Of a stretch of DNA of 64,000 nucleotides, positions 258 through 54,376 are shown piece after piece; the stretch's first letter is position 1, and each line of letters opens with the position of its first letter. The DNA comes from Candidatus Baldrarchaeota archaeon. Its GTDB lineage: Archaea; Asgardarchaeota; Baldrarchaeia; Baldrarchaeales; DXJG01. The DNA lies in contig DXJG01000007.1 in NCBI GenBank assembly GCA_019056805.1, forward strand, positions 1,992 to 65,991, read 5' to 3'. Made by a program: the position numbers and the translations under genes. Under the pieces are notes generated by a model. The model saw only the letters and a list, made by a program, of their open reading frames with translations, searched no databases and was not told the DNA's origin.

Positions 258-3200
258 TTATTGTTTTGAGGGTTTAACTAGACTTTTTTCCATTGCTGCT
301 CGCTTTCTTTTGCGCATAATTACTATAGCTACACCGATTATTGCCACAGCAATTATTACGAGGTACATTAATGGTATTTCTCTTGGTGGTGGTGCTTCTT
401 CTCCTGGTTTACCTATTGTTGGTATCCAGCCAGCCAAGAATTCTGCTAATGAGCTTACTATTGTTTTCTTTTGTTTGCCGGAGTATACTACTACTTCAGG
501 GTCTTCGTAGACGAAGTATCCGTCCCATTTCGGAAATCCTACGCTTAGGAAGTACATGGTACTTTGGAATGTCCATCCGCCAACGCTTGTTTCAGATTCG
601 TAGTCTGTGTACGTTGCAACGAAGGTGCTTAGCGGAATTGTGTGAGTTGAAACGTTGCAAACCATGCTTAGGTTTCCGCCCCAGATGTATGTGTCACCCA
701 TGTTTACCTCTGCAAACTTTAATCCACTAGTGTCTAGTGAAATTCTTGATGCTTCTACAATTTCATCTGGGGTTATTGGTGTTCCATCTTCACTTACTAC
801 TTCCCAGCTTCCACTTGTTTCTGCGTAGATGTAATAGTTGAGTGATAAGCTTAGGTTTTCTAAAACGGCTATGCCCGTTGGTAGGTCTAGATCCCAGTTT
901 CCTATATGTTGGTCTATCTTTATGCGAGCCTCTGTACTATTTGTTGCTGTTGAGTTTTCTACGTAGAAGTGTAGTTTGAAGGATAGTTCTTCAAGTGAAG
1001 CGTCTACCGGGCGTTCTTGGAATGTGCGGAGATCTGTGCCATAAATTTCTTCACCATACCATGCGTAGTAGCTTCTTCCAAACGGGAACATTGTACCATT
1101 AATGTCAAGATATGAAACACCGAATTCTACGCTTTCGTTTATTGGAAGTGTTAACATTCCGGTTTCATTGTAGATGCCAAAGGCTTCTCCGGGAGTAACG
1201 AATATTACATTGCCTACAGCTTCAGGTATGAAGTAATGAGTAGCCTCGTCTTCATCCATGATCAGATTGTCATTTGTATCGTTGTAGATAAATATACCTG
1301 CGTATTCGTATCTAAGATCTACATGGTAGGATTGGAAGGTTTCATTTTCTCCTGTTGAAACCCAGTATGATTGTTGGAAGCCGAACCAGAGCCATGTCCA
1401 AGTGACTTCTTCTTTAACCCAGTCCCAACCTTCTTCTTCAGCCTTTTTGAGGTAGTCTTCCCATGTCATGTTTCTTGCCATTCTTGCAATGTCCCAGTAT
1501 CCTGATTTAGGAGCATTTCTCTCGGTGTCCCAGAGAGTTTCATTTATTATGGCCATCGTCTCTGGTGAAACTGGTGTCATGTTTGTGTAGAACCAGTAGT
1601 ATGTTTCATTCCATCTGTTCCAATAGGTATTGGTGGATGTTCCCATCCAAGCATTTACAATTAATTCATCGCCGGGTATTACTGGGTTTGGATCGTACAC
1701 TATATTAACGTCAAGGCCATTTACTGTTTCATTCCAGCCGAATTCTCCAACATATACCCTCTTAACATAGAATTGATCATCTGTTGTACTTAGATCTCCA
1801 TCTAAGTCTAGTGCACCAGTTGTAGGATCTATTGTCCACTTTCTGTAACCCCAAAGACCCCATTCAGGGGATCCAACAATTACATCCCAAACTTCGTACC
1901 TGTAGGAAACATCGCCCCACCGAAGTTCTTCAAGATGCCAAGTCACGGGGTAACCCCAAGAGAGACGAGCTACCTTGATATGCTCAACATATAGATTTGT
2001 TGTGTAATTTACACCATTTACCGTTATATTGTATATTGGGAATTCATATTCGTAAGAGTAGAGGTCATTATAGTATCTTGGCGGTATAGTGTACCACCAT
2101 TCTGGGTGCAGAAGCCAGTTGATCGGTATTAGATCGTACCATGCACCTGACACTGTGTAAATACGGTAGTAGTCATACATTAGATTTATTGATCTATACT
2201 CGTTTATCCATACTGTTGTATTGTAGGTTTCACCGTTCCATGTGAAGGTTTCTGGTCCAGGATATTCATATCCGCCTAGTTCTACGGTCACTATTCCTAT
2301 AAACTCGTAGTCTTCTAAGCTTTCCAGATCTATTCTGGAACCGTTAAGCAGATACAAAACATAAGTATTGTTTTCCCAGTCATATTCTGGTTCAGGGATA
2401 ACTGTGTAATATATGGTACCACTTACGTTTACTTCAAAAAAGACAACCCTTAGATGACGGGATACATCTAGGAGTGTTCCATTAAACAGAGTAACATTAC
2501 CAGATTCAGTGGTGGAATCGTAGGTGAAATAGTCAACATATAATTTTATTAGGCTTTCTCTATCGTATGATCCCTGGTTTGTCAGATTTCCTATGAATAT
2601 TGCAAATCCTATTTCTTCGATATCCCAACAATCTATTCCAGATACCTTCGTGTATAAGCCTTGTCCCTTTGTAATGCTATAGGTCACACCATCTACGATA
2701 ATGTATCCTGTCGTAGCACCCTCATAATCGTAATGAATAAGGTACAAGGAACCATTTACTAAGGCGTAATCGTCTTCAGGAACTGCTCCACCCTCGCTCT
2801 TTGGCTGCTGTAGGCACCACCATGAAAGCCATTCGTACTCGTCACTTACACCTTCATATGGAAGCTCTACTCTTTCTTCTCCCACTAAGGTGTAATACCA
2901 AGATCTTTTGAACCATTCGGGTACAATTATGGACTTTCCATTGTATTCCCCGACATAATATGCTGATGGATATTCGATGTAGTATCTTTTACCATTTCTT
3001 TCAAAGTAATACATGTACATATAGTCGTAGTCATACCTTACGTAAATCTTTGTTCCGTTTTCAAGTAGAATATAGTATTCCTGTGCTATGTAGTCCCAGT
3101 CTATCCACCCCTTTGTAAGGTTAACCCATGTGGTTCCATTGATAACGGTAAAGTAACCACCAAACTCGACTGGTACTCTGCCGATCTTCTCAACGTTTAA

Positions 3201-6200
3201 ACAATAATTGTAGTCTGCTAACCATATAATTTCTCCATCTAGAGTAATTATGAAGTAGGCTTCTTCAAAAATACTCCACCATGGCGAACTCATATACGTT
3301 GTAATGTTGTAAGTCTCGCCAGTAGTTTCGTCGTAGATTGTTGCATTATATATGAATGCATGGTATGCTTCATATACGTAAATCTTTGTTCCGTTTTCTA
3401 ATATGTAGTAGCGTTTGTATTCGTAGGTTGTTGGATCCCATTCTTCACGTAGCAATCTGTATTCGTATTCGTATCCGTTCCAGAACTTTATTTCTTTTAA
3501 CGGTAGTTTTTCGCCGTTTATTAATATGTAGGGCTTACTTAAGATGAGATATTTCTTGCCATTTGATGTTTCTGCATAGTATCTTGTCTCTGGGTTGGGT
3601 ATGTATACTTCAACGCTTCCATTATTAATGGTATAGACTTTGCTGTATGCCCAGTCTTCTAAAATATGTTCTCCCCATGGTTCAGTATAATCTGGACCAT
3701 ATGTCCAGTTAAGCAAGTTAACACTAAAACTGTATCTTTGGTCATTGGCGTATTCGGTGAAACTCATATTCACTTGAATGAGATACTTTCCATCTTCTGT
3801 GGCGAAAGCACTATAATTGTTTACAATAATATAGGTTTCGTTTACGACTGTGTCTTTGTGATGCCAGTCTAGCCACATATTTATCCATTCACCAGAAGTC
3901 TGGTTGAAAGAGTAGTGTTCCCAATGCCATCCTTCAACTTCTTCCATCGTACCTGTGGTCTCATTCCATATTTCGTACGTACCATACTCGTAGACCTCTT
4001 TGTTAGTTTGATTGTAAACTATTATTTCTGTGGTGTTTTCTCTTAGATTTATTGTTGCAATTATTTCCAAGTTGCTCCATATAGTTTCATTTTCGCTCCA
4101 ATAGTAATTCCAACAGTTGAATCTAACTCTTATTCCATCGACATCGGTTACAAGCTGACTGCCACCTTCCATTTCTACTTCAACTATAAACCATTGGCCA
4201 GGATTAGTCGCAAAATACCAAGTTCCAGAAGTTGCTCCTTCTTGATCTCTAATTCTAACATTAATTACTGGTTTCTCTACGGAAAGTTGATGTGCATTTT
4301 CATATATCCACTCCCAGTCTCTTGGCCATATCCTCCACTGACTACTATATACGTAGTAGTCTATCCATAGGTTTGGCCCAGGATTTCCTATGAACTTCCC
4401 TTCAAATTCTAATATGATTTTATTATCTTCAACGGTTTTTGTGCCGCTTATTAGCTCGTAGAGCCGTAATTCAGAGGGTACCTCCTCGATTTTCCAACCT
4501 TCCACATAGTCAATGTATTGTCCCCATTCATCCTCTTTTAGTGTTTCATTCCAGTATTGGTAGAGCAGATAATAGTTAAAAGTACCGTCTGTATTATTGT
4601 AGAAGAGAAGCAAATTGGGTGAAGCCCAGTCTGTTGTTTCTACCTCATAATATTCTCCTGTTGTTTCGTCCCAGTAAACTCTTGTTACATTTATTTCTTT
4701 AGCAATAGTTACCCATTGCTCCATTAGATATGGTCCAAACACCCACTCCCTTGTTATTATTGTGGCATTTGGATCCCAAACATATGTGTCTAGGGTTTCA
4801 TTGTATACCCAGCCTCCATGATATACCCTGTATTCTTCATGCCACCCCGTCACATTAACATAGGTCCTCAAGCTATATGGAAGACGAATTACTATGCTGG
4901 CGTTTCTAAAATCAGCATCAGATATCCCGGTTATGTTTAGTCTTATGATAAATGTTTGGTTGATTCCAACACTACGGATTAATTCATAGTCTGTGTTTAA
5001 TATTTCTGCTAGGTACGTACCACCATACATCATGTCAAAGTATACTGCTACTTCGTCCCATGGACCGCCTATGGCGACCTCTTTGTATAAGCTTAGTTCA
5101 CTGTCCCAATAATAGTACGAGGATGTACTAATGTAATTGCTTTCATTGTCAAAGATGTTTAGATAGACATTGTATATTCCTTTTGGAGTTAGGTCGTTAA
5201 ACTGGCCTGTTATTACGAAGTTATATTGATCTGGGGTTTCAATTAGGGTTGTTTGACTTTGATTCAATGTAAAGAACTCACCCGTAGTACTGCCGTATGG
5301 GTCTGAATAGTTATAAATAGAGGTCCATGTAGACCAATCATTCGATGAGTAATCGTAGTAAATTGATAGATAGGCGGATATATTTACGGCCCACATATTC
5401 CAAGATAGATCTATTGTTCCAAGTTCGGTGCCTTCTTCAAATAGGAGTTTGGGAATTGTTATGTTTATCATTACAGGTGCGTTTAATTCAATCCATGTGT
5501 CTGGTGTAACCAAATACCAGGTTTCGGTTGTTGTGTTGTAGCAGAATATGTCGTAATGTGCTTTGGGGCCAAACTCCCAGCTTATGTCTCGGTATGTCCA
5601 GTTCCATCCCCATGTTTCGTTGTATAGTCTCCACCATACTCTTATCTCGGGTGGTAAATTCATTACTGATGGGTCGACATAAATTGCGTCTTCAGTTTCA
5701 TAGTATAGTAGCTCACTGAAGAACGGTATGATATGCAAGGTATACGTTGTATCAGCTAGCCAATTTCCTATGATTATTTTGAATCCTACAAAGTTTAAGC
5801 TGGCATTTCTTGCTCTTTCTATAGCGTCTCTTGCGTCAAAAGGCACTGAGCATTCTGGGGTCCCAAAGTCATATGACTGATAGGGTTCAACAGGGTTAAG
5901 TTCATCATTATAAAAGTCTATAAGTACTGATTCGATTGTCGCTCCGTTGTCTATGGAGGCATTAAATCCAGTTAAAAATTCAATTGCTCTTAGTTCTGCT
6001 ATTATTAAGATTTCTACAGTACCGCTATCCGCGCTTGTGTTGGAGAATGTTATAAATAGTTCTCCTTCGATGAAAGAAGCATTAAAGAAGGCTAAAACTC
6101 CTAATTCCTCATTGTAGAATATATATACATTTGGCTCTCCTTCTTCTCCTTCTTCTGGTGGTGGATATTCTGCTCCGCCTGCTTCTACTCTAAAGTGGTG

Positions 6201-6710
6201 CTCTGTGTTTTCAGTCCAGTCTCTTATGGTTACCGTAAACTTAACACAAGTTGCTCCAATGTCAGTTGCTCTTACAGCTATTTCTTCACCGTTTATACTT
6301 ATGGTTGTTCGATCTGTGCCTATGTTGGTGACTGCATAAGTATCTAAAACGTTAAATGCATCATCACAAAGATGTATACTTAATGAATCAATTATGGCGC
6401 CGCCGTCGATGCTTAGTGACAGTTCTTGTAGTCCCCTTACACCGTCAAGTGTGACGTAAATTAATAAATCTACAGTTTCACTGTCTTTTGAACTATTTTG
6501 AAAAGTGATTTCAAGCCCGTTTTCAATTAATGTATAATTGAAATAGTCTAGTGGTTTTCCTTCAGCATAATAGTCTACCATTATTACGGGGCTTTCTCCT
6601 TCCTGTTTTGGTATCATTGCCGAACTTAAGTTAATACTCGAAAGAACTATTAGTACACAAAGTATCACTGAAAAAAGAGGCTTAAAACCTATTTTATTTA
6701 CCATTTTCAT
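258..6710 (-). CDS. Giant cell-surface protein (2150 aa), signal peptide plus C-terminal transmembrane anchor, aromatic-rich and probably N-glycosylated
   Basis: Uninterrupted 6.45-kb ORF. N-terminus MKMVNKIGFKPLFSVILCVLIVLSSINLSSA looks like a signal peptide; C-terminus has one hydrophobic helix (LMYLVIIAVAIIGVAIVIM) followed by RKRKR. Very rich in Y/W/T/N/E with many N-x-S/T sequons and internal repeats (e.g. YILENGTKIYV twice). Confidence 0.85.
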   Translation of the reverse strand: MKMVNKIGFKPLFSVILCVLIVLSSINLSSAMIPKQEGESPVIMVDYYAEGKPLDYFNYTLIENGLEITFQNSSKDSETVDLLIYVTLDGVRGLQELSLSIDGGAIIDSLSIHLCDDAFNVLDTYAVTNIGTDRTTISINGEEIAVRATDIGATCVKFTVTIRDWTENTEHHFRVEAGGAEYPPPEEGEEGEPNVYIFYNEELGVLAFFNASFIEGELFITFSNTSADSGTVEILIIAELRAIEFLTGFNASIDNGATIESVLIDFYNDELNPVEPYQSYDFGTPECSVPFDARDAIERARNASLNFVGFKIIIGNWLADTTYTLHIIPFFSELLYYETEDAIYVDPSVMNLPPEIRVWWRLYNETWGWNWTYRDISWEFGPKAHYDIFCYNTTTETWYLVTPDTWIELNAPVMINITIPKLLFEEGTELGTIDLSWNMWAVNISAYLSIYYDYSSNDWSTWTSIYNYSDPYGSTTGEFFTLNQSQTTLIETPDQYNFVITGQFNDLTPKGIYNVYLNIFDNESNYISTSSYYYWDSELSLYKEVAIGGPWDEVAVYFDMMYGGTYLAEILNTDYELIRSVGINQTFIIRLNITGISDADFRNASIVIRLPYSLRTYVNVTGWHEEYRVYHGGWVYNETLDTYVWDPNATIITREWVFGPYLMEQWVTIAKEINVTRVYWDETTGEYYEVETTDWASPNLLLFYNNTDGTFNYYLLYQYWNETLKEDEWGQYIDYVEGWKIEEVPSELRLYELISGTKTVEDNKIILEFEGKFIGNPGPNLWIDYYVYSSQWRIWPRDWEWIYENAHQLSVEKPVINVRIRDQEGATSGTWYFATNPGQWFIVEVEMEGGSQLVTDVDGIRVRFNCWNYYWSENETIWSNLEIIATINLRENTTEIIVYNQTNKEVYEYGTYEIWNETTGTMEEVEGWHWEHYSFNQTSGEWINMWLDWHHKDTVVNETYIIVNNYSAFATEDGKYLIQVNMSFTEYANDQRYSFSVNLLNWTYGPDYTEPWGEHILEDWAYSKVYTINNGSVEVYIPNPETRYYAETSNGKKYLILSKPYILINGEKLPLKEIKFWNGYEYEYRLLREEWDPTTYEYKRYYILENGTKIYVYEAYHAFIYNATIYDETTGETYNITTYMSSPWWSIFEEAYFIITLDGEIIWLADYNYCLNVEKIGRVPVEFGGYFTVINGTTWVNLTKGWIDWDYIAQEYYILLENGTKIYVRYDYDYMYMYYFERNGKRYYIEYPSAYYVGEYNGKSIIVPEWFKRSWYYTLVGEERVELPYEGVSDEYEWLSWWCLQQPKSEGGAVPEDDYALVNGSLYLIHYDYEGATTGYIIVDGVTYSITKGQGLYTKVSGIDCWDIEEIGFAIFIGNLTNQGSYDRESLIKLYVDYFTYDSTTESGNVTLFNGTLLDVSRHLRVVFFEVNVSGTIYYTVIPEPEYDWENNTYVLYLLNGSRIDLESLEDYEFIGIVTVELGGYEYPGPETFTWNGETYNTTVWINEYRSINLMYDYYRIYTVSGAWYDLIPINWLLHPEWWYTIPPRYYNDLYSYEYEFPIYNITVNGVNYTTNLYVEHIKVARLSWGYPVTWHLEELRWGDVSYRYEVWDVIVGSPEWGLWGYRKWTIDPTTGALDLDGDLSTTDDQFYVKRVYVGEFGWNETVNGLDVNIVYDPNPVIPGDELIVNAWMGTSTNTYWNRWNETYYWFYTNMTPVSPETMAIINETLWDTERNAPKSGYWDIARMARNMTWEDYLKKAEEEGWDWVKEEVTWTWLWFGFQQSYWVSTGENETFQSYHVDLRYEYAGIFIYNDTNDNLIMDEDEATHYFIPEAVGNVIFVTPGEAFGIYNETGMLTLPINESVEFGVSYLDINGTMFPFGRSYYAWYGEEIYGTDLRTFQERPVDASLEELSFKLHFYVENSTATNSTEARIKIDQHIGNWDLDLPTGIAVLENLSLSLNYYIYAETSGSWEVVSEDGTPITPDEIVEASRISLDTSGLKFAEVNMGDTYIWGGNLSMVCNVSTHTIPLSTFVATYTDYESETSVGGWTFQSTMYFLSVGFPKWDGYFVYEDPEVVVYSGKQKKTIVSSLAEFLAGWIPTIGKPGEEAPPPREIPLMYLVIIAVAIIGVAIVIMRKRKRAAMEKSLVKPSKQ

Positions 6711-6993
6711 TACTTTTCCTCCAAAGTCATAACATTTATTATTACCTATTGTTGTATTATCTACTACTATAATTTAATTCTGGTAATGAAAATGTACTAG
6801 TTTGTATATATAAAAATTTTTGCAACGCGATGTTTTAGTAACATGTTATAACAAAAAGTTATCCTAGTAGTCAATGTAAGTCCGAAAACCACTCAAGAAA
6901 TTAATAAATAATAATTCACAATTTACTGTTCATAAATCGAAACCTTATTATAATATGTATTACCACAAGTCTATATCTTAGTGAAAAATAAGT

Positions 6994-7021
6994 CAATTCA
7001 CTTGAAATCCCGAGTGAATTG
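6994..7021. promoter_or_regulatory. Inverted repeat (9-bp arms CAATTCACT / AGTGAATTG, 10-nt spacer) ending about 10 nt before the start codon of the 7032 gene
   Basis: Read directly from the sequence; lies in the AT-rich divergent intergenic region between the 258..6710 and 7032..9194 genes. Confidence 0.3.
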
Positions 7022-7031
7022 AGGGATAAAA

Positions 7032-9194
7032 ATGAATGAAATATTAATTTCAGCTGTTTTGATCCTTTTACCTAATATTTTAATAGCTTTGATTGTCCTT
7101 TTGATGAGATATACTCGTTTTAAAGAAATTGCATTGCGTACAGGAATAGCCTTCTCTGCGTTTTGGCTAATATATTGTATTGGCTCAAGTATAGTTTTCA
7201 ATTTGATCGGAGTTGAACCGAACTTAGTTTATTCTTCCCGAGATTTTTCAATATCAAACTTAAAGACTCTTGCAACTTATGTAGTATCTCTAGCAATATA
7301 CTCTCTCACTTTGACAATCACTTACCCGGTTTTCATGTTCCCATTTGTTTTCTTCCTTGCTCCTATAATAGCCGTTTTAATTCTACTTTACGCCGTTAGA
7401 GGAAGAGGAATAAAAGAAATAACTTTTTGGATCGATTTAAAACCCAAAAGATTGATGGGGTGGGATGAAGAAAAAGAGGTTTTGAAACTTTTAATAGCTC
7501 TTCTACCTGTTTCTCTATATTTCTTAACATCATTACTACGAATATTGAAATACGAGGAAGATCCGCTTTCGGTTGGTAGTACCTTGTTGGGCTGGGTACT
7601 TGAAATTTATATGCTTTTTCTTTTATCTTTCATAGTGGCGGTGAATCTTCTTTATACTTCTCGTGTTTATCACGGAAACAGGTTTGTAGGTGAAACTATT
7701 AGAAGAAATACCTTCAATAATCTCTTATCTATAAGTATTGTGCTTTCGTCCGTAAGTCTTATACTTTTTGTACAAATTTTCAAGGGAATCATCTACGTTT
7801 TCATATACTTCTCACTATATTACATTGCGATAACTATTATTTTCCTTTCATTCTTCAAAGTAATGGAACCAACTTCCGTGTATATCTTTGCTAAAATTCT
7901 AACTTTTATGAGAGATGAAAATAAATTCCAAAGAATATTTGAAAAAAGAACGCTTGTACTAGGCATTATAGTTGGTATAGTGGTTACTTTAGCTTCTCTT
8001 TTCTGCACATACGCTTTTATATCGGTTTATTGGAGCTACGTGAATATAGATCTAGATGCCCTTTTAGGTGAATGTTCTTTAGATAGCAGCCCCTCCCTGG
8101 AAATTTTGGAAATTTTAAACATACTTATTTCTTTAGGATCTTTACAAAGATTTTTTGAAATAGCAATTATAATGTTTCTTATCTATGCGCTCAGAAATAT
8201 GGTTAAAATAAAATTTTTCATAGCTGGCATATATGTAGGCATATTTAAGGTATTTGCTGACTATCCCCTTTTACAGCGCGCAACTAAAGCTTGGACTACA
8301 ACTGTATTTTCAAGTGCGAACATTGGTTTCGTCAACATTTTAGTTCCAAGGTTTGCCTATCTAGGATTGACAACTTCTTATCTGGGTTCATCTGTCTATC
8401 AATTTATAGTCATACCTATACTTCTCCTTAAACTTTTAGCAACACTCTTAGTTTTTACTGTTTTAGTTTACTTAAAATTTGGTAAACTTGTTCAGTTTAT
8501 CGATGTTGAAGCTGGACATCAAATAAAATATATATGTGAAGTTGAACCTGACTATATTACTCCTAACTCGTTGATAAAACTGAAAATAGCAAAAATATTT
8601 GAAGAAAAAATTCCAGAAGATCTTTTACAGATCGTAGAATTCTTTAAGACAAAAACATACACTTTTCAAGAATTAAAAGAAAAATTAGGCATGCCTGATG
8701 AAAAATTAAAGAAAATTCTCCGATATCTGCATGAAAATTACATTATTGACATTTACGACTGCGAATTTAAAATAGTTACACCAGCACCAGTGATAGAAGG
8801 AATATATATTGTGAATACAGACGGTATAGCTCTGTACAGTAAGTCATTTGGTGAAGTAAAAGTCGAACCTTTATTGATTTCAGGTATGCTTTCAGCAATA
8901 ACTAGCTTCGTTAAAGAAACAACAAGAAGTCAACAATATTTGCAAGCTATTGATCACGGTGATGTCGTTCTCATGATAGAATATGGAGATGGATTTTTCG
9001 TCACCCTTTTGGCGAACAGAGAAACCCCTGAAATTCGTATGAAATTAAGGGAATTTGTTAGGCGATTCCAAGAAAAATACGGTGAAATTCTCAAACGATG
9101 GAGTGGAGATCCCGGTGAATTTGAAAATGTTGAAAAATTAGTCAATGAAGTTTTTGAAATCACATCTACTAGTGAAGAAATAACCACTACCTAG
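7032..9194 (+). CDS. Polytopic membrane protein with C-terminal cytoplasmic domain (putative roadblock/longin-like alpha/beta domain)
   Basis: First ~500 aa contain many hydrophobic helices; C-terminal ~220 aa are hydrophilic with pattern GIYIVNTDGIALYSKSFG...LISGMLSAITSF...FFVTLLAN...KRWSGDPGEF, homologous to the C-terminus of the 48963..51935 protein. Confidence 0.8.
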   Translation: MNEILISAVLILLPNILIALIVLLMRYTRFKEIALRTGIAFSAFWLIYCIGSSIVFNLIGVEPNLVYSSRDFSISNLKTLATYVVSLAIYSLTLTITYPVFMFPFVFFLAPIIAVLILLYAVRGRGIKEITFWIDLKPKRLMGWDEEKEVLKLLIALLPVSLYFLTSLLRILKYEEDPLSVGSTLLGWVLEIYMLFLLSFIVAVNLLYTSRVYHGNRFVGETIRRNTFNNLLSISIVLSSVSLILFVQIFKGIIYVFIYFSLYYIAITIIFLSFFKVMEPTSVYIFAKILTFMRDENKFQRIFEKRTLVLGIIVGIVVTLASLFCTYAFISVYWSYVNIDLDALLGECSLDSSPSLEILEILNILISLGSLQRFFEIAIIMFLIYALRNMVKIKFFIAGIYVGIFKVFADYPLLQRATKAWTTTVFSSANIGFVNILVPRFAYLGLTTSYLGSSVYQFIVIPILLLKLLATLLVFTVLVYLKFGKLVQFIDVEAGHQIKYICEVEPDYITPNSLIKLKIAKIFEEKIPEDLLQIVEFFKTKTYTFQELKEKLGMPDEKLKKILRYLHENYIIDIYDCEFKIVTPAPVIEGIYIVNTDGIALYSKSFGEVKVEPLLISGMLSAITSFVKETTRSQQYLQAIDHGDVVLMIEYGDGFFVTLLANRETPEIRMKLREFVRRFQEKYGEILKRWSGDPGEFENVEKLVNEVFEITSTSEEITTT

Positions 9195-10781: not shown

Positions 10782-13700
10782 GTGTTTCACCCTGATTTTA
10801 ACAAGAAGGCTTCTCCAACAACTAAATTAATATCTATGCTTCTGCTTTTAGCTCTTCTCTTAACCTACTGCTACTATCCAGCGACATTGTTTACGAATAC
10901 AAACTATCCGCAAACTACCTCCCTACTAATTTATAGAGACAATGAAACCACTGATAGCTTGACAAAGGTATCTTACGATGACGAAAATTTACAAGAATGG
11001 TTAAGTTCACTTAGAAGCTTAGAGGTTCCAGCAGGATCTCCAATGGATATTTATCCCGTTAGGGAGAGCATAGCTGTTGATTTATGGCCGGGAATCTATT
11101 TTCCGGAGGATGTTGAAATTTATAAGCCTCTTATAGAGGATCTTCATGCTCAAGGAATAAAATATATGATTTATAGGAATTTTTACATGGTTACTGATGT
11201 AAACTACACTTACCTATGTGAGTATTATCCTGGTTTCAATGCATCGAATGCTGGTTTTATAGATTTAGATGGAAACCCGTATATAGTAGATTATGATCCC
11301 TACGGTACACCAATATTTAGAGCTTCAACAAATAGACCTTATTGGCAAAGTTTTCTCATAAATTCAACGAAATTAGCTATCGATGCTGGTGTAGATGCTG
11401 TTGTTTTTGATGTTGGATTTGGACATTATCCTCCAAATGAGTTAAATTTTGATCCAGATAGCATTAAAGATTTTAGAGAATACCTAGCAGAAAAATATAC
11501 TTCAGAAGAATTGGCTTCAAAATTTAATATTTCTGACATTTCTACATTCGATTTTGGGCAGTATCTTAGAGATCTAGGATATAATGCTAGTAGTTTAAGG
11601 GAAGCTTTAACGCAAGGAACATCATTGGGATACTATGCTGATTTGTTATGGTCGGAGTGGTGTGAATTTCATCTTAAAGTTTTGGTGGAGTTTTATAAGA
11701 GACTTTATACCGAGGTAAAAGAATATGCTCAAAGTAAAGGACGAGATTTCTATGTTTTCTCCAATATTTATCATGGTCTTGATCCCCAGTACAATATACT
11801 CTATTTGATTAATTATGTGGATGGTATCTATGCAGAAATTTTCTTTGATGATTTACAGTATCCAAATAGAACTCCAGCAACAGTTTATAAGGTAGCTTAT
11901 AGTTTAGGGAAACATTATATCCCTATGACTTCTCCATCCAACGATTCGGAACTATATCCATTATATATTGCAGAGCTTTTTGCATGTGGCAGCTGGACGG
12001 GTGGAGCAGGAAACTATACTCCATATTTCCTTTTTGTTAACTCGCATCCTGAACTATTCAGTAAGGAACAGGACGGTGAAATAGGACTTGTTTACTCTTT
12101 AGCTTCAAGTGAAAACTATAGTTCATTTGAGGGTGCCTTTTACCTTCTCTCTGATACCCAGCGTAGTTTTGATGTTATTGTTTTTGGAGATAATAAGTGG
12201 TTTAATGAAAGCTTGACATTAAATGACTTGTTAAAGTATAGAGCAATTTTACTACCTAATACTGGTTATCTTACAGATGAACAAGTTGAATTGCTTCTGA
12301 ACTATGCTGAACAAGGTGGTATTCTAATAGGCATTGGAAGTGTTGGAACACGAAATGAAACCGGGGAAATTGTCAACTCAGAGACTCGAACAACGTTTAT
12401 CAGCCTTTTTAATGGTAGCATAGTTTCTTATGGAAGTGGAACAGTTATTTCATGGACCAGTGATATAGCTTTACAGTACTTATTGCAGAGAAATACAACA
12501 CTTTTAGAAGAATTTGAAAATAGATTAAGTGAAGTGTTTTCTCCCGAAATCATAACAAGCTTTACCCACAATACCACTATATTTCAATACTGGGATCCTG
12601 AATCTAATGCTATGATCTTTCATTTCTTAAATCGTGAATATGACTCCAAAAACGATGTAATAACACCTCAACACGATGTGAGCTTTAAGTTTACTTTAAG
12701 ACCTGAATTGGACGGTCTTCCTCTTGAAATAAGATTTTATTCACCGAATGACTATTTCGAAGGAATAGAGTTGACTTACAGCTCAGATCCTAATGGATAT
12801 GTGGAAGTAACAATTCCGAAAGTACATATATGGGGTATTTTGCGTGTGGAAGCTAAGAAAAAAGCAGTACAAGAAGATTTAGTAATTAACAGTCCAACCG
12901 TGCTTAAGGATCAAGTTATAGTTTTGAACGGTAACCTATTAGTTAACTCAAAGTTGACATTGGAGAATGTTATTTTAAAGATGAATAGTTCCCTTGACAG
13001 GGTGTTTCGAATAGAAGTTTATGAAGGAGGAGAACTTGTTATCAAAGACTCTGTCATTACTGCGTATGATCCAAAGTATCACTATTATGTTAAGGTGAAT
13101 AAGGGCAGTCGGTTCTATATGGAGAATAGTGAGTTAAGCCATGCTGGTGTTTGGGGACCTATGTATGCTGGAGGGCTGTGGATAAACACGGATGATGTCA
13201 TAATCTTAAACTGTACAATACATAGTAATTATGACTATGGAATACATGTATATAATGCTTCATACGTCGAGATAATAAACTGTAAAATTTACGGCAACAA
13301 TATAGGAATATACTTGCTCAATTCATCTTTCGTAACCATCTCTAAATGTAACATTTACGATAATTCAATTGGTATCTACGAAAAGGGAAGCTACTATTCT
13401 ACAATCAAACACAGTCATATCTCAAATAATTTATACTGGGGAATAACAATTTGGGACTCTCTATTCCCATTAATATCTGATAGTACCATTCATGATAGTG
13501 TCCATGATGGAATTATCATTTGGTACTCGTTTTTCGCAAAAATTTACAACTGCAAAGCTTACAGTAATGAAAATGGTTTTAACATACGATACACGCCTTT
13601 AGTGACAGTTTCAAGTAGCGAAGTGTATAACAATGAGGAGGCAGGCTTGTTTTTCTTCCATGTTGAGCTTCTGTATGGTCATCCGTTGGCAATTCTTGAT

Positions 13701-15104
13701 TCTCTTGGCACTATAGTTGCTAACAGTTTTTACAATAACACATATGGCATATACATGTTGGAAAGTGAAAAAACTAAGATTGAAGCTTGCAATATACTTG
13801 ATAACACGTGGGGAATATATGTTGAAGGAACTACTCAATGCACTTTCATTTTCCGTTCAAACTTCATTGATAACACCGATCACATTTATGTTGATGAAAA
13901 GGCTCAAGGAAAAATTCAATTTGACAACATAACAATTGGAAACTACTGGGATGACCACAGTGGAGAAGATGCTGATGGTGATGGTATTATTGATACACCT
14001 TATACTATTAACTCGGTAGATAAAGACTATAAGCCGCTAGCTAATCCAGTTACTATCGTAAAAATAGAAGATATATATGGGCCTATGATCACGGACATTC
14101 AAGTCGTGAAAGAAGAGGGAAATGAAAATTACAATTTAACAATATCTGTTAATGTCACTGATGATTCTTGGTTAAGTTGGGTTTTAATGAACGGAACAAT
14201 ACATAATTTGCCGGGTGGAGAAAACTATCCTTTGATGCGTATAATGGTATATTTCTACGATCCCTTTGCTACTATCTTAGGCTATGATAGGTCAAACTTC
14301 AATCTTCTTCCATCAGAAGGATATCCTCTCAAAACATGTACAGCTTCAACTCAGTTCACTTTTCCTCTTAGCTATAAGCCTCATTTCAAGATTTTTGCTG
14401 TGGATACCTATGGGAACTGGGCTGAAAATGACTCTACAACTCCTCATATAACTGGTATATTTTGGGATCCAAGTAGTCCTGAATATGATGAAGAGGTAAC
14501 TGTGTTTGTTCATGTATTTGATCAAAGCAGGATATCTGAATGTTTACTAAGTTACTTTAATGGAACAGAGTGGAATAACGTTTCAATGATATATAATGAG
14601 GAAACAAATGCAATGGTTGGAAGCATTCCAAAACAACCATATGGAGTTACAGTAGAATTCAAGGTAATTGTTAAAGATACTATGAACAATATAGCTGTAA
14701 GTGCAACTTATTCTTACACTGTTAAAGATACTACTCCGCCAATATTGAGAATAATTCAGCCAAGTGGCGGAGAAACAATTTCTAATGATGTTAATGTTAC
14801 TTGGGAGTCCTATGATGAAGGTTCGGGGTTAAAAGAATTCAAAATTTATTTAAATGGAACATTAAAAGCTACTTTGCCCCCTACAACATCCTGTTATCTT
14901 CTATCTAACTTAACACCAGGTTCTTACAATGTTACAGTTGAAGCTGTGGATAATGCTGGCAACCGTGCAACTGCATCAATAGTTTTCAAGTATGTCTCTG
15001 AAGAAGGTGGATTACCTAACTCTCTCATACTCATGGGAGGAACAATAGCCGGTGTTGTAATTATAGTTACAGTGTTTTTAATGAGAAAGAAACTAAAAGA
15101 TTGA
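10782..15104 (+). CDS. Large surface-anchored protein (1440 aa) with parallel beta-helix (PbH1/NosD-like) repeats and Ig-like domains
   Basis: N-terminal hydrophobic segment; central run of repeats of the type IINCKIYGNNIGIYLLNSSFVTISKCNIYDNSIGIY typical of right-handed beta-helix proteins; Ig-like region near the C-terminus; C-terminal TM anchor LILMGGTIAGVVIIVTVFLMRKKLKD. N-terminal ~600 aa may be a glycoside-hydrolase-like domain (weak). Confidence 0.85.
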   Translation: MFHPDFNKKASPTTKLISMLLLLALLLTYCYYPATLFTNTNYPQTTSLLIYRDNETTDSLTKVSYDDENLQEWLSSLRSLEVPAGSPMDIYPVRESIAVDLWPGIYFPEDVEIYKPLIEDLHAQGIKYMIYRNFYMVTDVNYTYLCEYYPGFNASNAGFIDLDGNPYIVDYDPYGTPIFRASTNRPYWQSFLINSTKLAIDAGVDAVVFDVGFGHYPPNELNFDPDSIKDFREYLAEKYTSEELASKFNISDISTFDFGQYLRDLGYNASSLREALTQGTSLGYYADLLWSEWCEFHLKVLVEFYKRLYTEVKEYAQSKGRDFYVFSNIYHGLDPQYNILYLINYVDGIYAEIFFDDLQYPNRTPATVYKVAYSLGKHYIPMTSPSNDSELYPLYIAELFACGSWTGGAGNYTPYFLFVNSHPELFSKEQDGEIGLVYSLASSENYSSFEGAFYLLSDTQRSFDVIVFGDNKWFNESLTLNDLLKYRAILLPNTGYLTDEQVELLLNYAEQGGILIGIGSVGTRNETGEIVNSETRTTFISLFNGSIVSYGSGTVISWTSDIALQYLLQRNTTLLEEFENRLSEVFSPEIITSFTHNTTIFQYWDPESNAMIFHFLNREYDSKNDVITPQHDVSFKFTLRPELDGLPLEIRFYSPNDYFEGIELTYSSDPNGYVEVTIPKVHIWGILRVEAKKKAVQEDLVINSPTVLKDQVIVLNGNLLVNSKLTLENVILKMNSSLDRVFRIEVYEGGELVIKDSVITAYDPKYHYYVKVNKGSRFYMENSELSHAGVWGPMYAGGLWINTDDVIILNCTIHSNYDYGIHVYNASYVEIINCKIYGNNIGIYLLNSSFVTISKCNIYDNSIGIYEKGSYYSTIKHSHISNNLYWGITIWDSLFPLISDSTIHDSVHDGIIIWYSFFAKIYNCKAYSNENGFNIRYTPLVTVSSSEVYNNEEAGLFFFHVELLYGHPLAILDSLGTIVANSFYNNTYGIYMLESEKTKIEACNILDNTWGIYVEGTTQCTFIFRSNFIDNTDHIYVDEKAQGKIQFDNITIGNYWDDHSGEDADGDGIIDTPYTINSVDKDYKPLANPVTIVKIEDIYGPMITDIQVVKEEGNENYNLTISVNVTDDSWLSWVLMNGTIHNLPGGENYPLMRIMVYFYDPFATILGYDRSNFNLLPSEGYPLKTCTASTQFTFPLSYKPHFKIFAVDTYGNWAENDSTTPHITGIFWDPSSPEYDEEVTVFVHVFDQSRISECLLSYFNGTEWNNVSMIYNEETNAMVGSIPKQPYGVTVEFKVIVKDTMNNIAVSATYSYTVKDTTPPILRIIQPSGGETISNDVNVTWESYDEGSGLKEFKIYLNGTLKATLPPTTSCYLLSNLTPGSYNVTVEAVDNAGNRATASIVFKYVSEEGGLPNSLILMGGTIAGVVIIVTVFLMRKKLKD

Positions 15105-15333: not shown

Positions 15334-16560
15334 TTGCAGTTTGGAGCTTTCTTTGGTATTTGGCTGATTTTCTTAATATTTATATTTATGCTAGCTGCTG
15401 AAGAAAGTCAAAGGAGAAAAGAAACTTTTCAGAAAATATATTCATGGTTAAAACAGAAATCTAAAAAGATATATTATGAAAAAGGCGGCTTTTTGAAAAG
15501 ACCTAGAATTATTGCAGAATTGAAACCAGAAATGGAATTGGAACGAGTTGAAGTTACAACATTTACTGTTCACCACGGGTATTATACAGGTACACATTAC
15601 GCTTCACATGCAAGAACTTATCTTAGAATCTTGGGTACGAGTGAGGAAGGTACTTTTGTAAACATCACTATAAGAGATGAAGGTCTTTTTGATAAACTTG
15701 CTATAGGGCTAGGACTTACAAAAGATATAGATTCAGGAGACCCCATATTTGATCAAACACATAGAATTAAAAGTGGAACACCTGAAATCGCCCTTAAACT
15801 CCTAAAGGATAAACAATTTAGAGATTATGTATCAATGATTCGTGATTTAAGGAAGTTTGAAATTAGAGGAGGAAAACATTTACATTTTATAGTTGAGTGT
15901 AATTATGACGTTTCATCTGCTGTGAATGCTATTTTAGCTATGGAAAGAACTGCAGAAGTTTTAGCGCCAGAGATTGAAAGAAAACCAGTAAAGGTTGAAA
16001 AAGCAAGACCCGTAACCCCGAAAGTAGAGCCTCGCAGAGCCGTAAGTTCCGAGGTAACGTTGAAATTGAAGAAAGAGTTTGAAAAATTGTCAATTTCTGT
16101 TTCTAAATTAGAATTTAAACCTTCAGAAGAAAACTTCACTAGGGTGATCATTACACCTTTACTAGGCGAATTCGATTACGTGCAATATGAAATCACTGAA
16201 AAATTGAAGGTAAGAGCTTTGGATAATCTTGAGAAACCTGCAAGTAAAACAATTACGATTCAGATATACCCCAAAGATATGAAAACAACCTCAACTCAAA
16301 AACCTACCTCTATTGAGGAAATCAAGACATTATTTGATATTAGGTGTGAGGATCAAGAAGTTTTAAGAAGAATTTCCGAAGCATACATACTTTTTGAAGT
16401 ATTAAGCGAGATTAAAGAATTGTCTAACTTCAATGTAAAACTGCAAGGCCAAACAATGGAAATATACTTAGAATGTGGCTTAAATCCAGAGAATATTAGG
16501 AGAGCTTATGAAGTAATCAGAGAAGCTGCATGGTGGACAAAATTCTATATACTAATTTAA
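15334..16560 (+). CDS. Uncharacterised membrane-anchored protein, paralog family member 1
   Basis: N-terminal TM helix; about 50-60 percent identical by eye to the 16723..17955 product, with shared blocks RVIITPLLGEFDYVQYEI and EEIKTLFDIRCEDQEVLRRISEAYILF. Confidence 0.75.
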   Translation: MQFGAFFGIWLIFLIFIFMLAAEESQRRKETFQKIYSWLKQKSKKIYYEKGGFLKRPRIIAELKPEMELERVEVTTFTVHHGYYTGTHYASHARTYLRILGTSEEGTFVNITIRDEGLFDKLAIGLGLTKDIDSGDPIFDQTHRIKSGTPEIALKLLKDKQFRDYVSMIRDLRKFEIRGGKHLHFIVECNYDVSSAVNAILAMERTAEVLAPEIERKPVKVEKARPVTPKVEPRRAVSSEVTLKLKKEFEKLSISVSKLEFKPSEENFTRVIITPLLGEFDYVQYEITEKLKVRALDNLEKPASKTITIQIYPKDMKTTSTQKPTSIEEIKTLFDIRCEDQEVLRRISEAYILFEVLSEIKELSNFNVKLQGQTMEIYLECGLNPENIRRAYEVIREAAWWTKFYILI

Positions 16561-16722: not shown

Positions 16723-17955
16723 TTGTACTCTTTATGGTTTATATGCTTGTGGTTTGCATGTTCAACGTTGGTAATTATATTAGCTATTTGGTTTGAAAAA
16801 ATAAGAAAAGCAAGAATAACAGAAATCTTTCAGGAAATTTTCTTTTGGTTAAAAGAGAAATCTGAAAGAATACGTTATGAAAATCATAAAAACCCTAGAA
16901 TTACAGCTGAGTTAAAACCAGAATGGCAATTAGATCAGGTTGAAGTTACAACGTTTATTGATAAATATGAACACTATTACGACTACTATATGTTACGTGC
17001 ATCTGAAAGATTTAATCTTAGGATTTTAGGTGTAGGTGAGGGGAAACATTTTGTAAGTCTTGCTATAAAAGATAAAGTCCCTTTTGATAGAAGTGTTTTA
17101 GGATCAGGGTTTGCAGAATATGTAAAATCTGGAGATCCAGTATTTGATCATTGGCATATCATTAGGAGTAAAACACCTCAAGCCGCTCTCAAACTTTTAA
17201 AAGACGATAAATTTAGAAGCTACATCAGTAATATACACAAATTAAGAATTTTCAAAATTGAGGGAGATGGAACTCTAAGTTTTACTGTTGAATGTAACTA
17301 TGATCCAATATCTGCTAAAAATGCCATTTTGGCTATGAAAAGAGTATTAGAAGTTCTATCACCAAAAACTAAGGAAAAAACTGCCGTTAGTGAAAGGGTT
17401 AAACCCGCTGTTTTAAAAGCTGAACCTCAGAAAATTATAGATCCCGAATTACTTTTAAACTTAAGAAAAGAATTTGAAAAATTATCGACCCATGTTTCTA
17501 AGTTAGAGTTTAAACCCTTGGAGGAAAATTTCTCTAGAGTGATCATTACTCCTTTACTAGGCGAATTCGATTACGTGCAATATGAAATTGCTGAAAAATT
17601 GAAAGTAGAAGCAATAGACGACCTTAAGAAAACTGTAGAAAAACCCATTACAATTGAAATACGTCCTAAAGAAGTAACGTTATCATTAGGTCAAAAAATA
17701 GCTTTTATTGAGGAAATCAAGACATTATTTGATATTAGGTGTGAGGATCAAGAAGTTTTAAGAAGAATTTCCGAAGCATACATACTTTTTGATTCTTTGA
17801 GCAAAATCAAAGAATTGTCTATCTTCAGCATAAAGTTGCAAGATTCAACGTTGAAAATATGTTTAGAATGTAGTGTCGATCCTGAAAACATCAGAAAAGC
17901 TTATGAAGCAGTTAAAGAAGCTGTCAATCTGGTTAAATTCCACCTATTAATCTAG
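16723..17955 (+). CDS. Uncharacterised membrane-anchored protein, paralog family member 2
   Basis: Same architecture and conserved blocks as 15334..16560; tandem arrangement. Confidence 0.75.
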   Translation: MYSLWFICLWFACSTLVIILAIWFEKIRKARITEIFQEIFFWLKEKSERIRYENHKNPRITAELKPEWQLDQVEVTTFIDKYEHYYDYYMLRASERFNLRILGVGEGKHFVSLAIKDKVPFDRSVLGSGFAEYVKSGDPVFDHWHIIRSKTPQAALKLLKDDKFRSYISNIHKLRIFKIEGDGTLSFTVECNYDPISAKNAILAMKRVLEVLSPKTKEKTAVSERVKPAVLKAEPQKIIDPELLLNLRKEFEKLSTHVSKLEFKPLEENFSRVIITPLLGEFDYVQYEIAEKLKVEAIDDLKKTVEKPITIEIRPKEVTLSLGQKIAFIEEIKTLFDIRCEDQEVLRRISEAYILFDSLSKIKELSIFSIKLQDSTLKICLECSVDPENIRKAYEAVKEAVNLVKFHLLI

Positions 17956-31736: not shown

Positions 31737-31784
31737 ATGTGCATTAATGCACATAAAGTTTATATGTGCATTAATGCACATATA
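31737..31784. promoter_or_regulatory. Two copies of a perfect palindrome ATGTGCATTAATGCACAT (second copy extended to 24 bp TATATGTGCATTAATGCACATATA), centres 27 bp apart
   Basis: Read directly from the sequence; lies between the divergently transcribed regulator gene (start 31653) and the ABC operon (start 31887). Candidate operator pair. Confidence 0.6.
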
Positions 31785-31886
31785 CATGTAGTTACCTATA
31801 CACTAATCAAGATCCTAGTACTACGGGTGGAAACCGTGGGACAAAAGAACCCCTCAGACAGTAATAAGCAAGGAAAACCGGTTCAT

Positions 31887-33008
31887 ATGATCTCCATTGC
31901 TGGCGAAATCTTCGAAACAAAAGTATTAGCAGTAATTCTACCAATGTTTGCAATAATGGAGAGTTTGAGTTTTCTAGGAAACTTTTACACAGTTACATCT
32001 ATCTTTCAGACACCTCTCAACTACGTTACAAGCATTATCGTAATTTTCTTCAGTCTTCTAGGCACATATGGAACAGTCAAGAAAAATAGGTTTTTGCTTC
32101 ATCTATCATTACTAGCACCCATCACGATTATAATTTCTACAATTCAATTTCTAATTATTTCTAAAACTTCCCTGCAAACTATTTACCTGATATCTGGAAT
32201 TTCTGTTTTAGGAATAAGCTTACTTTGCCTTTACACTTCTTATAGAACCTTATCCTATTTACAAACTTTACAATCTTCCATCTCAGAAACACGAGAGAGG
32301 ATAAAAAGTGAGTATACGGTGGAACTTATTGATGTGGTAAAAATATACAAGATAGGGCCAATTGAGGTTCCAGCATTAAACGGTGTGAATCTTAAAATTA
32401 AGAAAAGAGAGTTTGTAGCAATAATGGGTCCTTCAGGTTCGGGTAAATCAACTCTTCTACATATAATTGGTGCATTAGATCGACCTACTTCAGGCAAAGT
32501 TATCATTGATGGAGTAGATATTTCCACCCTCAGCAATGATGAACTTGCAAAACTGCGTAATAAAAAAATTGGCTTTGTTTTTCAAGCATACAACCTAATT
32601 AACAGATCTACAGTGCTTAGAAACGTTGAGTTACCTGCACTTATAGGAGGAACGTCTAAAAAAGAGCGTATAAAGAAGGCTATTAAACTACTTGAGACCT
32701 TAGGGCTGAGTGATACTATTTATAGGAAACCTAAGACATTAAGTGGCGGTCAACAACAGCGTGTGGCTATTGCTAGAGCAGTAATCAATGATCCAGAAAT
32801 CATTTTGGCTGATGAACCTACTGGAAACCTTGACTCTAAATCAGGTAGAGAAGTTATGATGTATTTAAGAAAAATGAATAGAGAATTAGGAACAACCATA
32901 ATTGTTGTTACCCATGATAGAGAAATTGCTGAGATGACTGATAGAATAATTCACATTCGAGATGGAAAAATCATTGGAGAAGAGGTTTTAAGGAGGAAAG
33001 AAACATGA
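31887..33008 (+). CDS. ABC transporter ATP-binding protein (MacB/LolD-like) with an N-terminal four-helix membrane segment
   Basis: Walker A GPSGSGKSTLL, Q-loop, signature LSGGQQQRVAIARA, Walker B ILADEPTGNLD. Start set at the first ATG after the palindrome region; an in-frame GTG further downstream would give a conventional ATPase without the membrane segment. Confidence 0.85.
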   Translation: MISIAGEIFETKVLAVILPMFAIMESLSFLGNFYTVTSIFQTPLNYVTSIIVIFFSLLGTYGTVKKNRFLLHLSLLAPITIIISTIQFLIISKTSLQTIYLISGISVLGISLLCLYTSYRTLSYLQTLQSSISETRERIKSEYTVELIDVVKIYKIGPIEVPALNGVNLKIKKREFVAIMGPSGSGKSTLLHIIGALDRPTSGKVIIDGVDISTLSNDELAKLRNKKIGFVFQAYNLINRSTVLRNVELPALIGGTSKKERIKKAIKLLETLGLSDTIYRKPKTLSGGQQQRVAIARAVINDPEIILADEPTGNLDSKSGREVMMYLRKMNRELGTTIIVVTHDREIAEMTDRIIHIRDGKIIGEEVLRRKET

Positions 33009-34639
33009 AGAAACCATATACATTTTTAATTATTGCGATTTTGATGATATTTATCGTAAACATAAGCTTTATGAATGTAGTCTATGCTCAAACTTCCGTG
33101 GATTTTGAAATACTTAGAGTTGTTTGGGGAACTCCCCAAGATAATCCTATAATTGTTAATCCGGGAGACACAAATGTACCTCTCACAATATATGTGAAAA
33201 ACAATTCTAGTGAAAGCCTTGTAGGTGTTAGAGGAGAATTAAATCTTACAGAACCGTTTAGGCATACTGAAAACAATAATTATTCTGCTATCTCTATCGG
33301 GACACCCATTGAAAGTAGCAATGTTCTTTCGCCAACAGGAGAAGTTTTACCATGGGGCACCTTTACCCTAACATACCATTTAAACATAAATAACACCGCT
33401 AAGAAAGGCACATACACGTGTACATTAACCATATACTACACAGTAAACTCCAGTACCCTCGGTTATGTCCCAGGCGTACCTAGAACCTATTCCGTAACAA
33501 TTATTATATATAATCGAGCACCATCTATTGAATCTTATCGACCAGCCGATCTAAATGTCGCTGTTTATGTAAATGATAGTGTAGAGTTTTTTGTTAAATG
33601 CAGCGATCCAGATAACGATACTTTGAGCTATGAGTGGACTTTTGATGGCGAAGTTGTTGCAACTACAAATAATTATACCTATATAGCTACGGAAGATGAT
33701 ATTGGAACTCATAATTTAGAGTTTGCAGTTGACGATGGCGAACTTAGAACAACTATGACATGGACCATCACTGTTACAAAAACAATCATAACATATGTTA
33801 ATGTAAGTAGTAATTATCTTTTTGGCGGCTTTGAAACAGAAGTAAACATAACAATCAGAAATAATGCATGGGACGGAACTGTCCAGATTTCCTTTGGTAT
33901 TCAATCACCTCTAGTTATTCATGGAAACAGTTCTTGGACATTTAAGTCAGTGTTTCCAAATCAAGAACTTACCGTACCCGTAGTTATTTATGTTCCTAAA
34001 GCTGCTATAGGTAACACGTTCACAGGAACCTTAACAATAAGTTACGACGATGAATATGGAAATAGCTATACAGAAAACCATAACATTGGTTTTGTGGTCA
34101 GAGGCCAGGTGTCTTTGGTTGCTTATGATTATGCAATTATACCCAATCCGGTTTCGCCAGGTGAAAAGGTTTCAATCAGTGCAACTTTATTGAATAAAGG
34201 TACAGTGACGGCAATGTTTGTTAATGTATCGATTCAACCAAATGAGGTTTTACTTTTATCTCAAGAAAGTAGTAGCTATATTGGGGAAGTTGAAGAAAAC
34301 TCTCCAGTTCCCTTTACAGTTTCGGCCTATGTTAAGTCAGATGTCCAAAATGGAACGTACCCAGTAATAATTACTATTACTTATACAGACGATTTATTCG
34401 AAGAACATTTGTTTAACATTACAGTGGAAATAACAGTACAAAAGTCGTCTGGAGACGAAACAGCGTCTGAAGAAAAAGTTGGTTTCCTTGAATTACTTTA
34501 TCGCGGTGGTTTGACCATCTTAATAAGTGTAGTAACGTTAATCGCAATTGTAGTGCTTTACCTTAAAAGATCCGCAAAACCTCTGCCTACTTCTTTCATG
34601 TTTGTAAACTATCCGCTTGGTGGTAACATTGAATATTGA
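33005..34639 (+). CDS. Secreted/surface protein with PKD-like beta-sandwich domains and C-terminal TM anchor, encoded inside the ABC operon
   Basis: Signal peptide MKKPYTFLIIAILMIFIVNISFMNVVYA; PKD-like segment SDPDNDTLSYEWTFDGEVV; C-terminal helix LTILISVVTLIAIVVLYL followed by KRSAK. Start overlaps upstream stop (ATGA). Confidence 0.8.
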   Translation: MKKPYTFLIIAILMIFIVNISFMNVVYAQTSVDFEILRVVWGTPQDNPIIVNPGDTNVPLTIYVKNNSSESLVGVRGELNLTEPFRHTENNNYSAISIGTPIESSNVLSPTGEVLPWGTFTLTYHLNINNTAKKGTYTCTLTIYYTVNSSTLGYVPGVPRTYSVTIIIYNRAPSIESYRPADLNVAVYVNDSVEFFVKCSDPDNDTLSYEWTFDGEVVATTNNYTYIATEDDIGTHNLEFAVDDGELRTTMTWTITVTKTIITYVNVSSNYLFGGFETEVNITIRNNAWDGTVQISFGIQSPLVIHGNSSWTFKSVFPNQELTVPVVIYVPKAAIGNTFTGTLTISYDDEYGNSYTENHNIGFVVRGQVSLVAYDYAIIPNPVSPGEKVSISATLLNKGTVTAMFVNVSIQPNEVLLLSQESSSYIGEVEENSPVPFTVSAYVKSDVQNGTYPVIITITYTDDLFEEHLFNITVEITVQKSSGDETASEEKVGFLELLYRGGLTILISVVTLIAIVVLYLKRSAKPLPTSFMFVNYPLGGNIEY

Positions 34640-54246: not shown

Positions 54247-54376
54247 TTTAAACAACCTTTAATGCTATTTCAAAACTTGAATTTAATTTATTTACTTCTA
54301 AATAGAGTATATACTTTTCTATTAGAAACATATTATTACAATTAAAAATGTAGACTTCATTTGCAGAATTTCAACT

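Follow-up and report, generated by a model that had tools for sequence, protein, structure and literature searches.

The window analysed here is a 64,000-nucleotide stretch of contig DXJG01000007.1 (positions 1,992 to 65,991 of the forward strand) from a Candidatus (Ca.) Baldrarchaeota archaeon (GenBank assembly GCA_019056805.1), and the gene under study is a single open reading frame (ORF) on its plus strand at 10782..15104, with a GTG start and a product of 1440 amino acids (aa). From the N to the C terminus, the protein consists of a hydrophobic leader, a module of ~600 aa, a parallel beta-helix, three immunoglobulin (Ig)-like domains and a transmembrane (TM) helix. We consider it reasonably likely that this protein is a surface-displayed glycosidase whose head, homologous to glycoside hydrolase (GH) family GH96, is carried on a non-catalytic stalk, catalysis being predicted from the sequence and a structural model. 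A previous sequence-only reading had placed the gene at exactly the coordinates of this ORF, and both peptides that it quoted lie inside the product.

An N-terminal module related to GH96

We searched all PDB sequences with a profile made from aa 80-705 of nine homologues, using hmmsearch. The sole significant match was 9m0b, the alpha-agarase Cm-AGA of Catenovulum maritimum (CAZy GH96), with an E value of 2.6e-19 over ~330 residues, and a second stretch of the profile matched the C-terminal domain of 9m0b. Comparison with Cm-AGA-like sequences by hhalign gave 98.8% (E 7.2e-17, 20% identity), the GH96 side of this comparison being shallow, as the search with the Cm-AGA catalytic fragment returned four fragmentary relatives.

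The protein was modelled with AlphaFold2 (AF2) in two halves, the head and aa 690-1440, so that the orientation of the head to the stalk is not covered by the models. The head model (predicted local distance difference test [pLDDT] score of 83.8, predicted template modelling [pTM] score of 0.82) comprised a (beta/alpha) barrel, a Rossmann-like domain and a beta-sandwich. Its top Foldseek match was again 9m0b (E 4.6e-28), and the next best were the GH151 alpha-L-fucosidase 6tvk and members of GH42, GH164 and archaeal GH35, all of which have the three-domain layout in common with GH96. Moreover, a helical insertion behind barrel strand 4 bears the motif FDFGQYLRDLGY, which is also found in the alpha-agarase. 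In GH42, the corresponding middle domain serves trimerisation, and in GH151 it takes part in active-site complementation. The common layout explains a signal of Pfam Glyco_hydro_42M (GH42M) on the middle domain; it stayed below threshold (16.6 vs 25.8 bits), the Pfam GH42 barrel model PF02449 gave no match, and the module did not qualify as GH42. Indeed, no Pfam or NCBIfam model covers the barrel, and the part that is likely to be catalytic is therefore invisible to standard annotation.

The module thus combines sequence similarity to a characterised GH96 enzyme, the fold of a solved structure and counterparts of the catalytic Asp and the catalytic Glu. Alignments and model together indicate that it is a remote homologue of the GH96 alpha-agarase with both predicted catalytic residues kept. 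The sequence-only reading had suggested that the N-terminal ~600 aa could be a TIM-barrel carbohydrate-active domain and had proposed structure prediction as a check. The prediction returned a distinct folded module with a CAZy-like fold and 9m0b as its top match, in agreement with a carbohydrate-active, barrel-type module that is GH96-like, but built of three domains and not of a single TIM barrel.

Predicted catalytic residues

Mutagenesis has shown that D994 and E1129 of Cm-AGA (PMC11311870) and D333 and E468 of AgaB (PMC10740060) are essential, the two residues being 135 apart in each enzyme; in the chain numbering of 9m0b, the pair is D323 and E458, also 135 apart as counted on the HMMER alignment. 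D210 was the counterpart of Cm-AGA D994 and AgaB D333 in HMMER, MAFFT and hhalign alike. The counterpart of Cm-AGA E1129 and AgaB E468 was E352, both in hhalign and in MAFFT L-INS-i with intermediate family members (TFLSGE vs DYLSPE vs VDGIYAE at this site), and it sits 142 residues past D210, compared to 135 in the GH96 pair. In the head model, D210 was the last residue of strand 4 and E352 the last residue of strand 6, the same strand positions that hold the nucleophile and the acid/base of GH151 (PMC10154630).

Eleven charged barrel residues were conserved in 15 homologues that have the module fused to a beta-helix: D100, K127, R185, D201, D205, D210, D224, K238, D347, E352 and K377. In an alignment of ~140 members of the wider family, D210 was found in 135/138, E352 in 129/146 and D347 in 125/143. 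D347 lies five residues before E352 and is near-invariant, which gives the family a D-x4-E signature.

The beta-helix and the Ig-like domains

Downstream of the head, we observed matches to Pfam Beta_helix (PF13229, E 5.6e-33, aa 744-893, 114.2 bits vs a gathering score of 25.9), Pfam NosD (PF05048, E 7.8e-24, aa 887-1061) and the NCBIfam parallel-beta-helix repeat TIGR03804 (60.5 bits vs 19.45, in 6 stretches). The AF2 model of aa 690-1440 (pLDDT 79.9) showed a regular beta-helix at aa ~700-1040, mostly with pLDDT >90, followed by a poorly modelled linker, three beta-sandwich domains and a terminal helix; Pfam Big_7 scored above threshold at aa 1320-1386. The PbH1-type repeats that had been noticed in the sequence were thus confirmed by the domain models and the AF2 helix, and the Ig-like domains by Big_7 and the three modelled beta-sandwiches.

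The same reading had implied for the beta-helix a functional unit of the lyase/hydrolase or NosD type. In the 15 fused homologues, which are 31-87% identical, no D, E, K, R or H at aa 697-1060 was conserved at a level of at least 90%; the conserved positions were G, N, Y, I, S, L and P, which are typical of the fold itself. Foldseek searches with the C-terminal half were dominated by tandem Ig/FN3 arrays, and the matches of the beta-helix to AlgG and phage tailspikes were weak and non-specific and therefore indicate no function for it. Identity as NosD was rejected, since the equivalog model TIGR04247 reached 78.1 bits against a cutoff of 300, and no nos genes were present among the window ORFs scanned. 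Given the lack of conserved charged residues, the low NosD score and the generic structural matches, the functional role that had been implied for the beta-helix was not supported: it is probably not catalytic, and its conservation pattern suggests a scaffold or at most a glycan-binding surface.

Predicted surface location

A hydropathy scan detected two hydrophobic segments only, at aa 10-38 and aa 1410-1436. The N-terminal one, of a kind also seen in the homologues, may be a Sec signal peptide or a signal anchor. The C-terminal one, together with a modelled helix at aa 1416-1439 and the RKKLKD that follows the segment, bears out the TM anchor of the sequence-only reading. The protein contains 31 N-x-S/T sequons compared to 15.0 +/- 3.3 in shuffled sequences. 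Its sequon density of 2.15 per 100 aa is 4 to 16 times higher than that of five non-surface control proteins encoded in the same window (a DEAD-box helicase, CDC48, PEPCK, a CoA-ligase-family protein and a MoxR-VWA protein; 0.13-0.51). Sequons, leader and C-terminal anchor would thus fit an exported, N-glycosylated, membrane-tethered protein. The earlier description as a membrane-tethered extracellular polysaccharide-processing enzyme therefore retains its layout, with the head as the likely enzyme and the helix reduced to a scaffold.

Proposed function and alternatives

We propose that the N-terminal leader would direct export and that the single C-terminal TM helix with its basic tail would keep the protein in the membrane in a type-I-like topology. 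The membrane-proximal stalk of three Ig-like domains and a beta-helix of ~14 turns, which we estimate from typical domain sizes at ~15-20 nm, would hold the distal three-domain head away from the membrane. Catalysis would rely on D210 and E352, the residues that close strands 4 and 6 and whose positions are essential in GH96, and the head might cleave, remodel or transfer an alpha-linked glycan outside the cell, with products arising at the cell surface. The beta-helix would act as a spacer, possibly as a glycan-binding surface, and not as a second active site. The substrates of GH96 and GH151 are alpha-L-galacto-configured (3,6-anhydro-L-galactose in agarose, L-fucose), and an algal-type galactan or fucan is therefore our guess, of low confidence, for the substrate.

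Several observations weigh against this proposal. The barrel model has seven clear strands instead of eight, and pLDDT falls to ~60 in the loops directly past D210 and E352. HMMER sets the GH96 Glu three residues off E352; this offset is resolved by MAFFT and hhalign, which both pair the Glu with E352, in a pairing that is based on alignment and not on structural superposition. Identity to any characterised enzyme is ~16-20%, and substrate specificity can therefore not be transferred from one. The signal peptide and the topology were read from hydropathy rather than from a dedicated predictor. Finally, sugar transporters, genes of sugar catabolism and further glycosidases were not found nearby in the scanned window, and neither conserved gene partners nor sugar-utilisation genes were found across the loci L001, L002, L004 and L005.

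We weighed other explanations. That catalysis resides in the beta-helix (as a polysaccharide lyase, a GH28-like hydrolase or an AlgG-like epimerase), with the N-terminal module as an accessory, appears very improbable. Many lyases, hydrolases and epimerases do have a parallel beta-helix fold, the Foldseek matches include AlgG (4nk6) and enzymatically active phage tailspikes, and phmmer gave a weak match to the mannuronan C5-epimerase AlgE4 (2pyg, E 0.014); however, all structural matches were low and non-specific, a DPHD-type motif is absent, and the charged residues that such an active site calls for are not conserved. A non-enzymatic adhesin or envelope structural protein, with the GH96-like head serving only as a lectin, seems unlikely as well, even though beta-helix, Ig repeats and TM anchor are adhesin-like, SiiE and FN3 arrays come out on top of the fold search, the gene lacks a carbohydrate-utilisation context and several further giant sequon-rich surface proteins are encoded in the window. 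Pseudo-enzymes usually lose their catalytic positions; here the GH96 catalytic pair, D347 and eight more charged residues of the barrel persist even in homologues of 31% identity, and the pair is kept across a family of >2000 representatives, which argues against a mere lectin.

It is somewhat easier to imagine, although we doubt it, that the protein is an active enzyme whose targets are envelope glycans or exopolysaccharide of the cell itself, serving their remodelling, release or turnover and not the use of food polysaccharides. This possibility differs from the proposed outward-facing glycosidase in substrate alone. Against it stand the closest relatives, GH96, GH151, GH42 and GH164, which are catabolic, the position of the head on the tip of a long stalk, which suits outward reach, and the lack of glycosyltransferase or export genes adjoining the gene in the window.

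The wider family and the fused clade

An exhaustive profile search over 1.84 billion cluster representatives (50% identity) retrieved 2127 representatives of the GH96-like module family at E <= 0.001 and 204 at E <= 1e-30. Ten family members were scanned, and no Pfam model scored above its curated cut-off on their barrel or middle domain; they gave sub-threshold GH42M, GLMA_2nd or GH42 signals only. No protein among the best 150 family members was close to Cm-AGA (top phmmer score, 72 bits), so that the characterised alpha-agarases sit on a remote branch of this large and uncharacterised group. The module also occurs in other architectures, as in a 3719-aa protein that has it at aa 2879-3493 and in a family member that bears a copper-amine-oxidase N-terminal domain.

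Fusion to a beta-helix was seen in 15/156 family sequences examined, and a search of an index of 5.8 billion proteins yielded nine full-length homologues, all nine with identical architecture. The related loci and named proteins carry the labels Ca. Baldrarchaeota, Ca. Odinarchaeota, Ca. Bathyarchaeota, Thermoproteales and Nitrososphaerota; the barrel-helix fusion is confined to a small group whose named members are Asgard and TACK archaea. Databases that name this protein or a relative use "right-handed parallel beta-helix repeat-containing protein", "parallel beta-helix repeat protein" or "hypothetical protein". Many bacterial and a few euryarchaeal proteins have been reported to match the GH96 model of dbCAN (PMC10740060), and GH96-like proteins outside Proteobacteria are therefore not new. 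In the literature searched, we found no description of the fusion architecture or of its occurrence in Asgard and TACK archaea. We tentatively raise the possibility, on balance a doubtful one, that the archaeal fusion clade and the surrounding family form a new GH family-level group, sister to GH96 and with a specificity other than agarase.

If this sister-family reading were true, Asgard and TACK archaea would attack marine or sediment polysaccharide at the cell surface by means of a stalked enzyme, and a concrete, testable enzyme for Asgard polysaccharide degradation would be at hand. The role of these archaea in sediment carbon turnover has mostly been inferred from genomes, and a GH96-like head with an intact pair is a specific, clonable candidate for their extracellular glycan processing. 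Moreover, new specificities could be found among the 2127 representatives, whose family is related to the alpha-agarases, a small family in biotechnological use.

Gene layout and genomic neighbourhood

The features of the gene are listed in Table 1. An AT-rich intergenic spacer of 317 nt lies ahead of the ORF, and a GGAG motif is found 9 nt upstream of its GTG start; the gene therefore probably has its own promoter.

Table 1. Features of the gene and its product, in window coordinates
Feature	Position	Strand	Basis
Complete ORF, 1440 aa	10782..15104	+	ORF call
Hydrophobic segment, aa ~16-36, behind basic n-region KKASPTTK	10827..10889	+	Hydropathy scan
GH96-like (beta/alpha)-barrel, predicted catalytic domain, aa ~96-430	11067..12071	+	
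Codon of D210, end of barrel strand 4	11409..11411	+	Alignments and model
Codon of E352, end of barrel strand 6	11835..11837	+	MAFFT L-INS-i, hhalign
Rossmann-like middle domain, aa ~434-585, like the GH42 "trimerisation" domain	12081..12536	+	Sub-threshold Pfam, model, fold matches
Beta-sandwich domain, aa ~590-696, closing the glycosidase module	12549..12869	+	Model; second 9m0b stretch
Right-handed parallel beta-helix, aa ~697-1090, ending GNYWDD...DGDGIIDTPY	12870..14051	+	Pfam, NCBIfam, model
Three Ig-like beta-sandwiches, aa ~1102-1215, 1222-1306 and 1310-1404 (last, Big_7)	14085..14993	+	Pfam, model
C-terminal TM helix, aa ~1412-1434, and short basic tail RKKLKD	15015..15101	+	Hydropathy, model

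The window has a G+C content of ~34% and encodes an archaeal CDC48 as well as a Gtr1/RagA-family small GTPase (53329..54255, minus strand; Pfam E 3.7e-27). Such a GTPase is a eukaryote-like trait that is typical of Asgard archaea, and it supports the assignment of the window to this group. An Rfam scan of the window gave zero matches, and no second GH96-like or beta-helix copy was found in it. Upstream of the gene lie a 720-aa ORF (7032..9194, plus strand), largely hydrophobic except for its less hydrophobic C-terminal part and without Pfam match, and then the DEAD-box helicase. Directly downstream are two tandem paralogous ORFs (15334..16560 and 16723..17955, both plus strand) of 408 and 410 aa, each with an N-terminal hydrophobic segment, with near-identical C-terminal halves and without Pfam match. 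Three other giant ORFs are sequon-rich, with 65, 36 and 40 sequons compared to ~13-19 expected: 258..6710 (minus strand, 2150 aa), 37526..42442 (plus strand, 1638 aa) and 48963..51935 (minus strand, 990 aa). The first is without any Pfam match, and the other two have Ig-like domains only. An ABC ATPase (31737..33008) and a MacB/FtsX-type permease (34617..35828) lie ahead of the 1638-aa ORF, and the 990-aa ORF adjoins another ABC ATPase (46555..47337).

Locus L002 of a "Ca. Baldrarchaeota" metagenome-assembled genome (MAG), which also points to an Asgard source, has a homologue of 85% identity and shares the order of genes, including the 720-aa ORF ahead of the helicase and the surface protein, and an ORF similar in size to the downstream paralogues behind the orthologue. 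The orthologue itself is split over the overlapping ORFs 4473..5585 (370 aa) and 5524..8802 (1092 aa), owing to a frameshift, a pseudogene or an assembly error. The same MAG encodes a second paralogue of 1390 aa, 34% identical (L004, 913..5085), which is followed by a 378-aa protein (5177..6313) on which Pfam NosD scored weakly, at 20.2 bits, and stayed under its cutoff of 23.6. On a Nitrososphaerota contig (L005), the homologue lies at 4108..8406 with an ABC-2 transporter nearby, and one gene upstream is a 1432-aa protein with an FG-GAP / lambda-carrageenase-like beta-propeller, Big_7 and glucodextranase-B-like domains. L005 could thus be a surface glycan-processing cluster, the propeller-like neighbour being present in this locus only.

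Comparison with known systems

With PbH1, NosD and AlgG-like helices, the protein shares the repeat pattern and a terminal GNYW...DGDG motif, both of which are also present in the archaeal nuclear magnetic resonance structure 2kzw. It differs from a NosD orthologue by its equivalog score (78 vs 300 bits) and the lack of nos genes, and from AlgG-like enzymes by the lack of conserved catalytic residues.

Families of clan GH-A such as GH42, GH164 and archaeal GH35 rely on a pair of Glu residues, one on strand 4 and one on strand 7. In contrast to the GH42 beta-galactosidases, the GH164 beta-mannosidase and the archaeal GH35 glucosaminidases, the archaeal protein has an Asp on strand 4 and a Glu on strand 6. 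The GH151 enzyme ALfuk2 (6tvk), the next best fold match, showed no detectable sequence similarity in PDB sequence searches and is an oligomeric exo-enzyme of the cytoplasmic type, without stalk or anchor.

The archaeal head is ~16-20% identical to the GH96 enzymes Cm-AGA (9m0b) and AgaB, and at ~18% identity alpha-agarase activity (EC 3.2.1.158) should not be assumed from the sequence. The site of D347 is a Thr in Cm-AGA (MAFFT), as opposed to the near-invariant D-x4-E of the family to which the archaeal protein belongs. In contrast to these two agarases of marine proteobacteria, the archaeal protein has no CBM6, CBM2 or thrombospondin-type Ca-binding modules in the Pfam scan, and its GH96-like module is fused instead to a beta-helix, Ig domains and a TM anchor. 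We regard it as a new form, in architecture and phylogeny, of the surface-anchored multidomain glycosidases.

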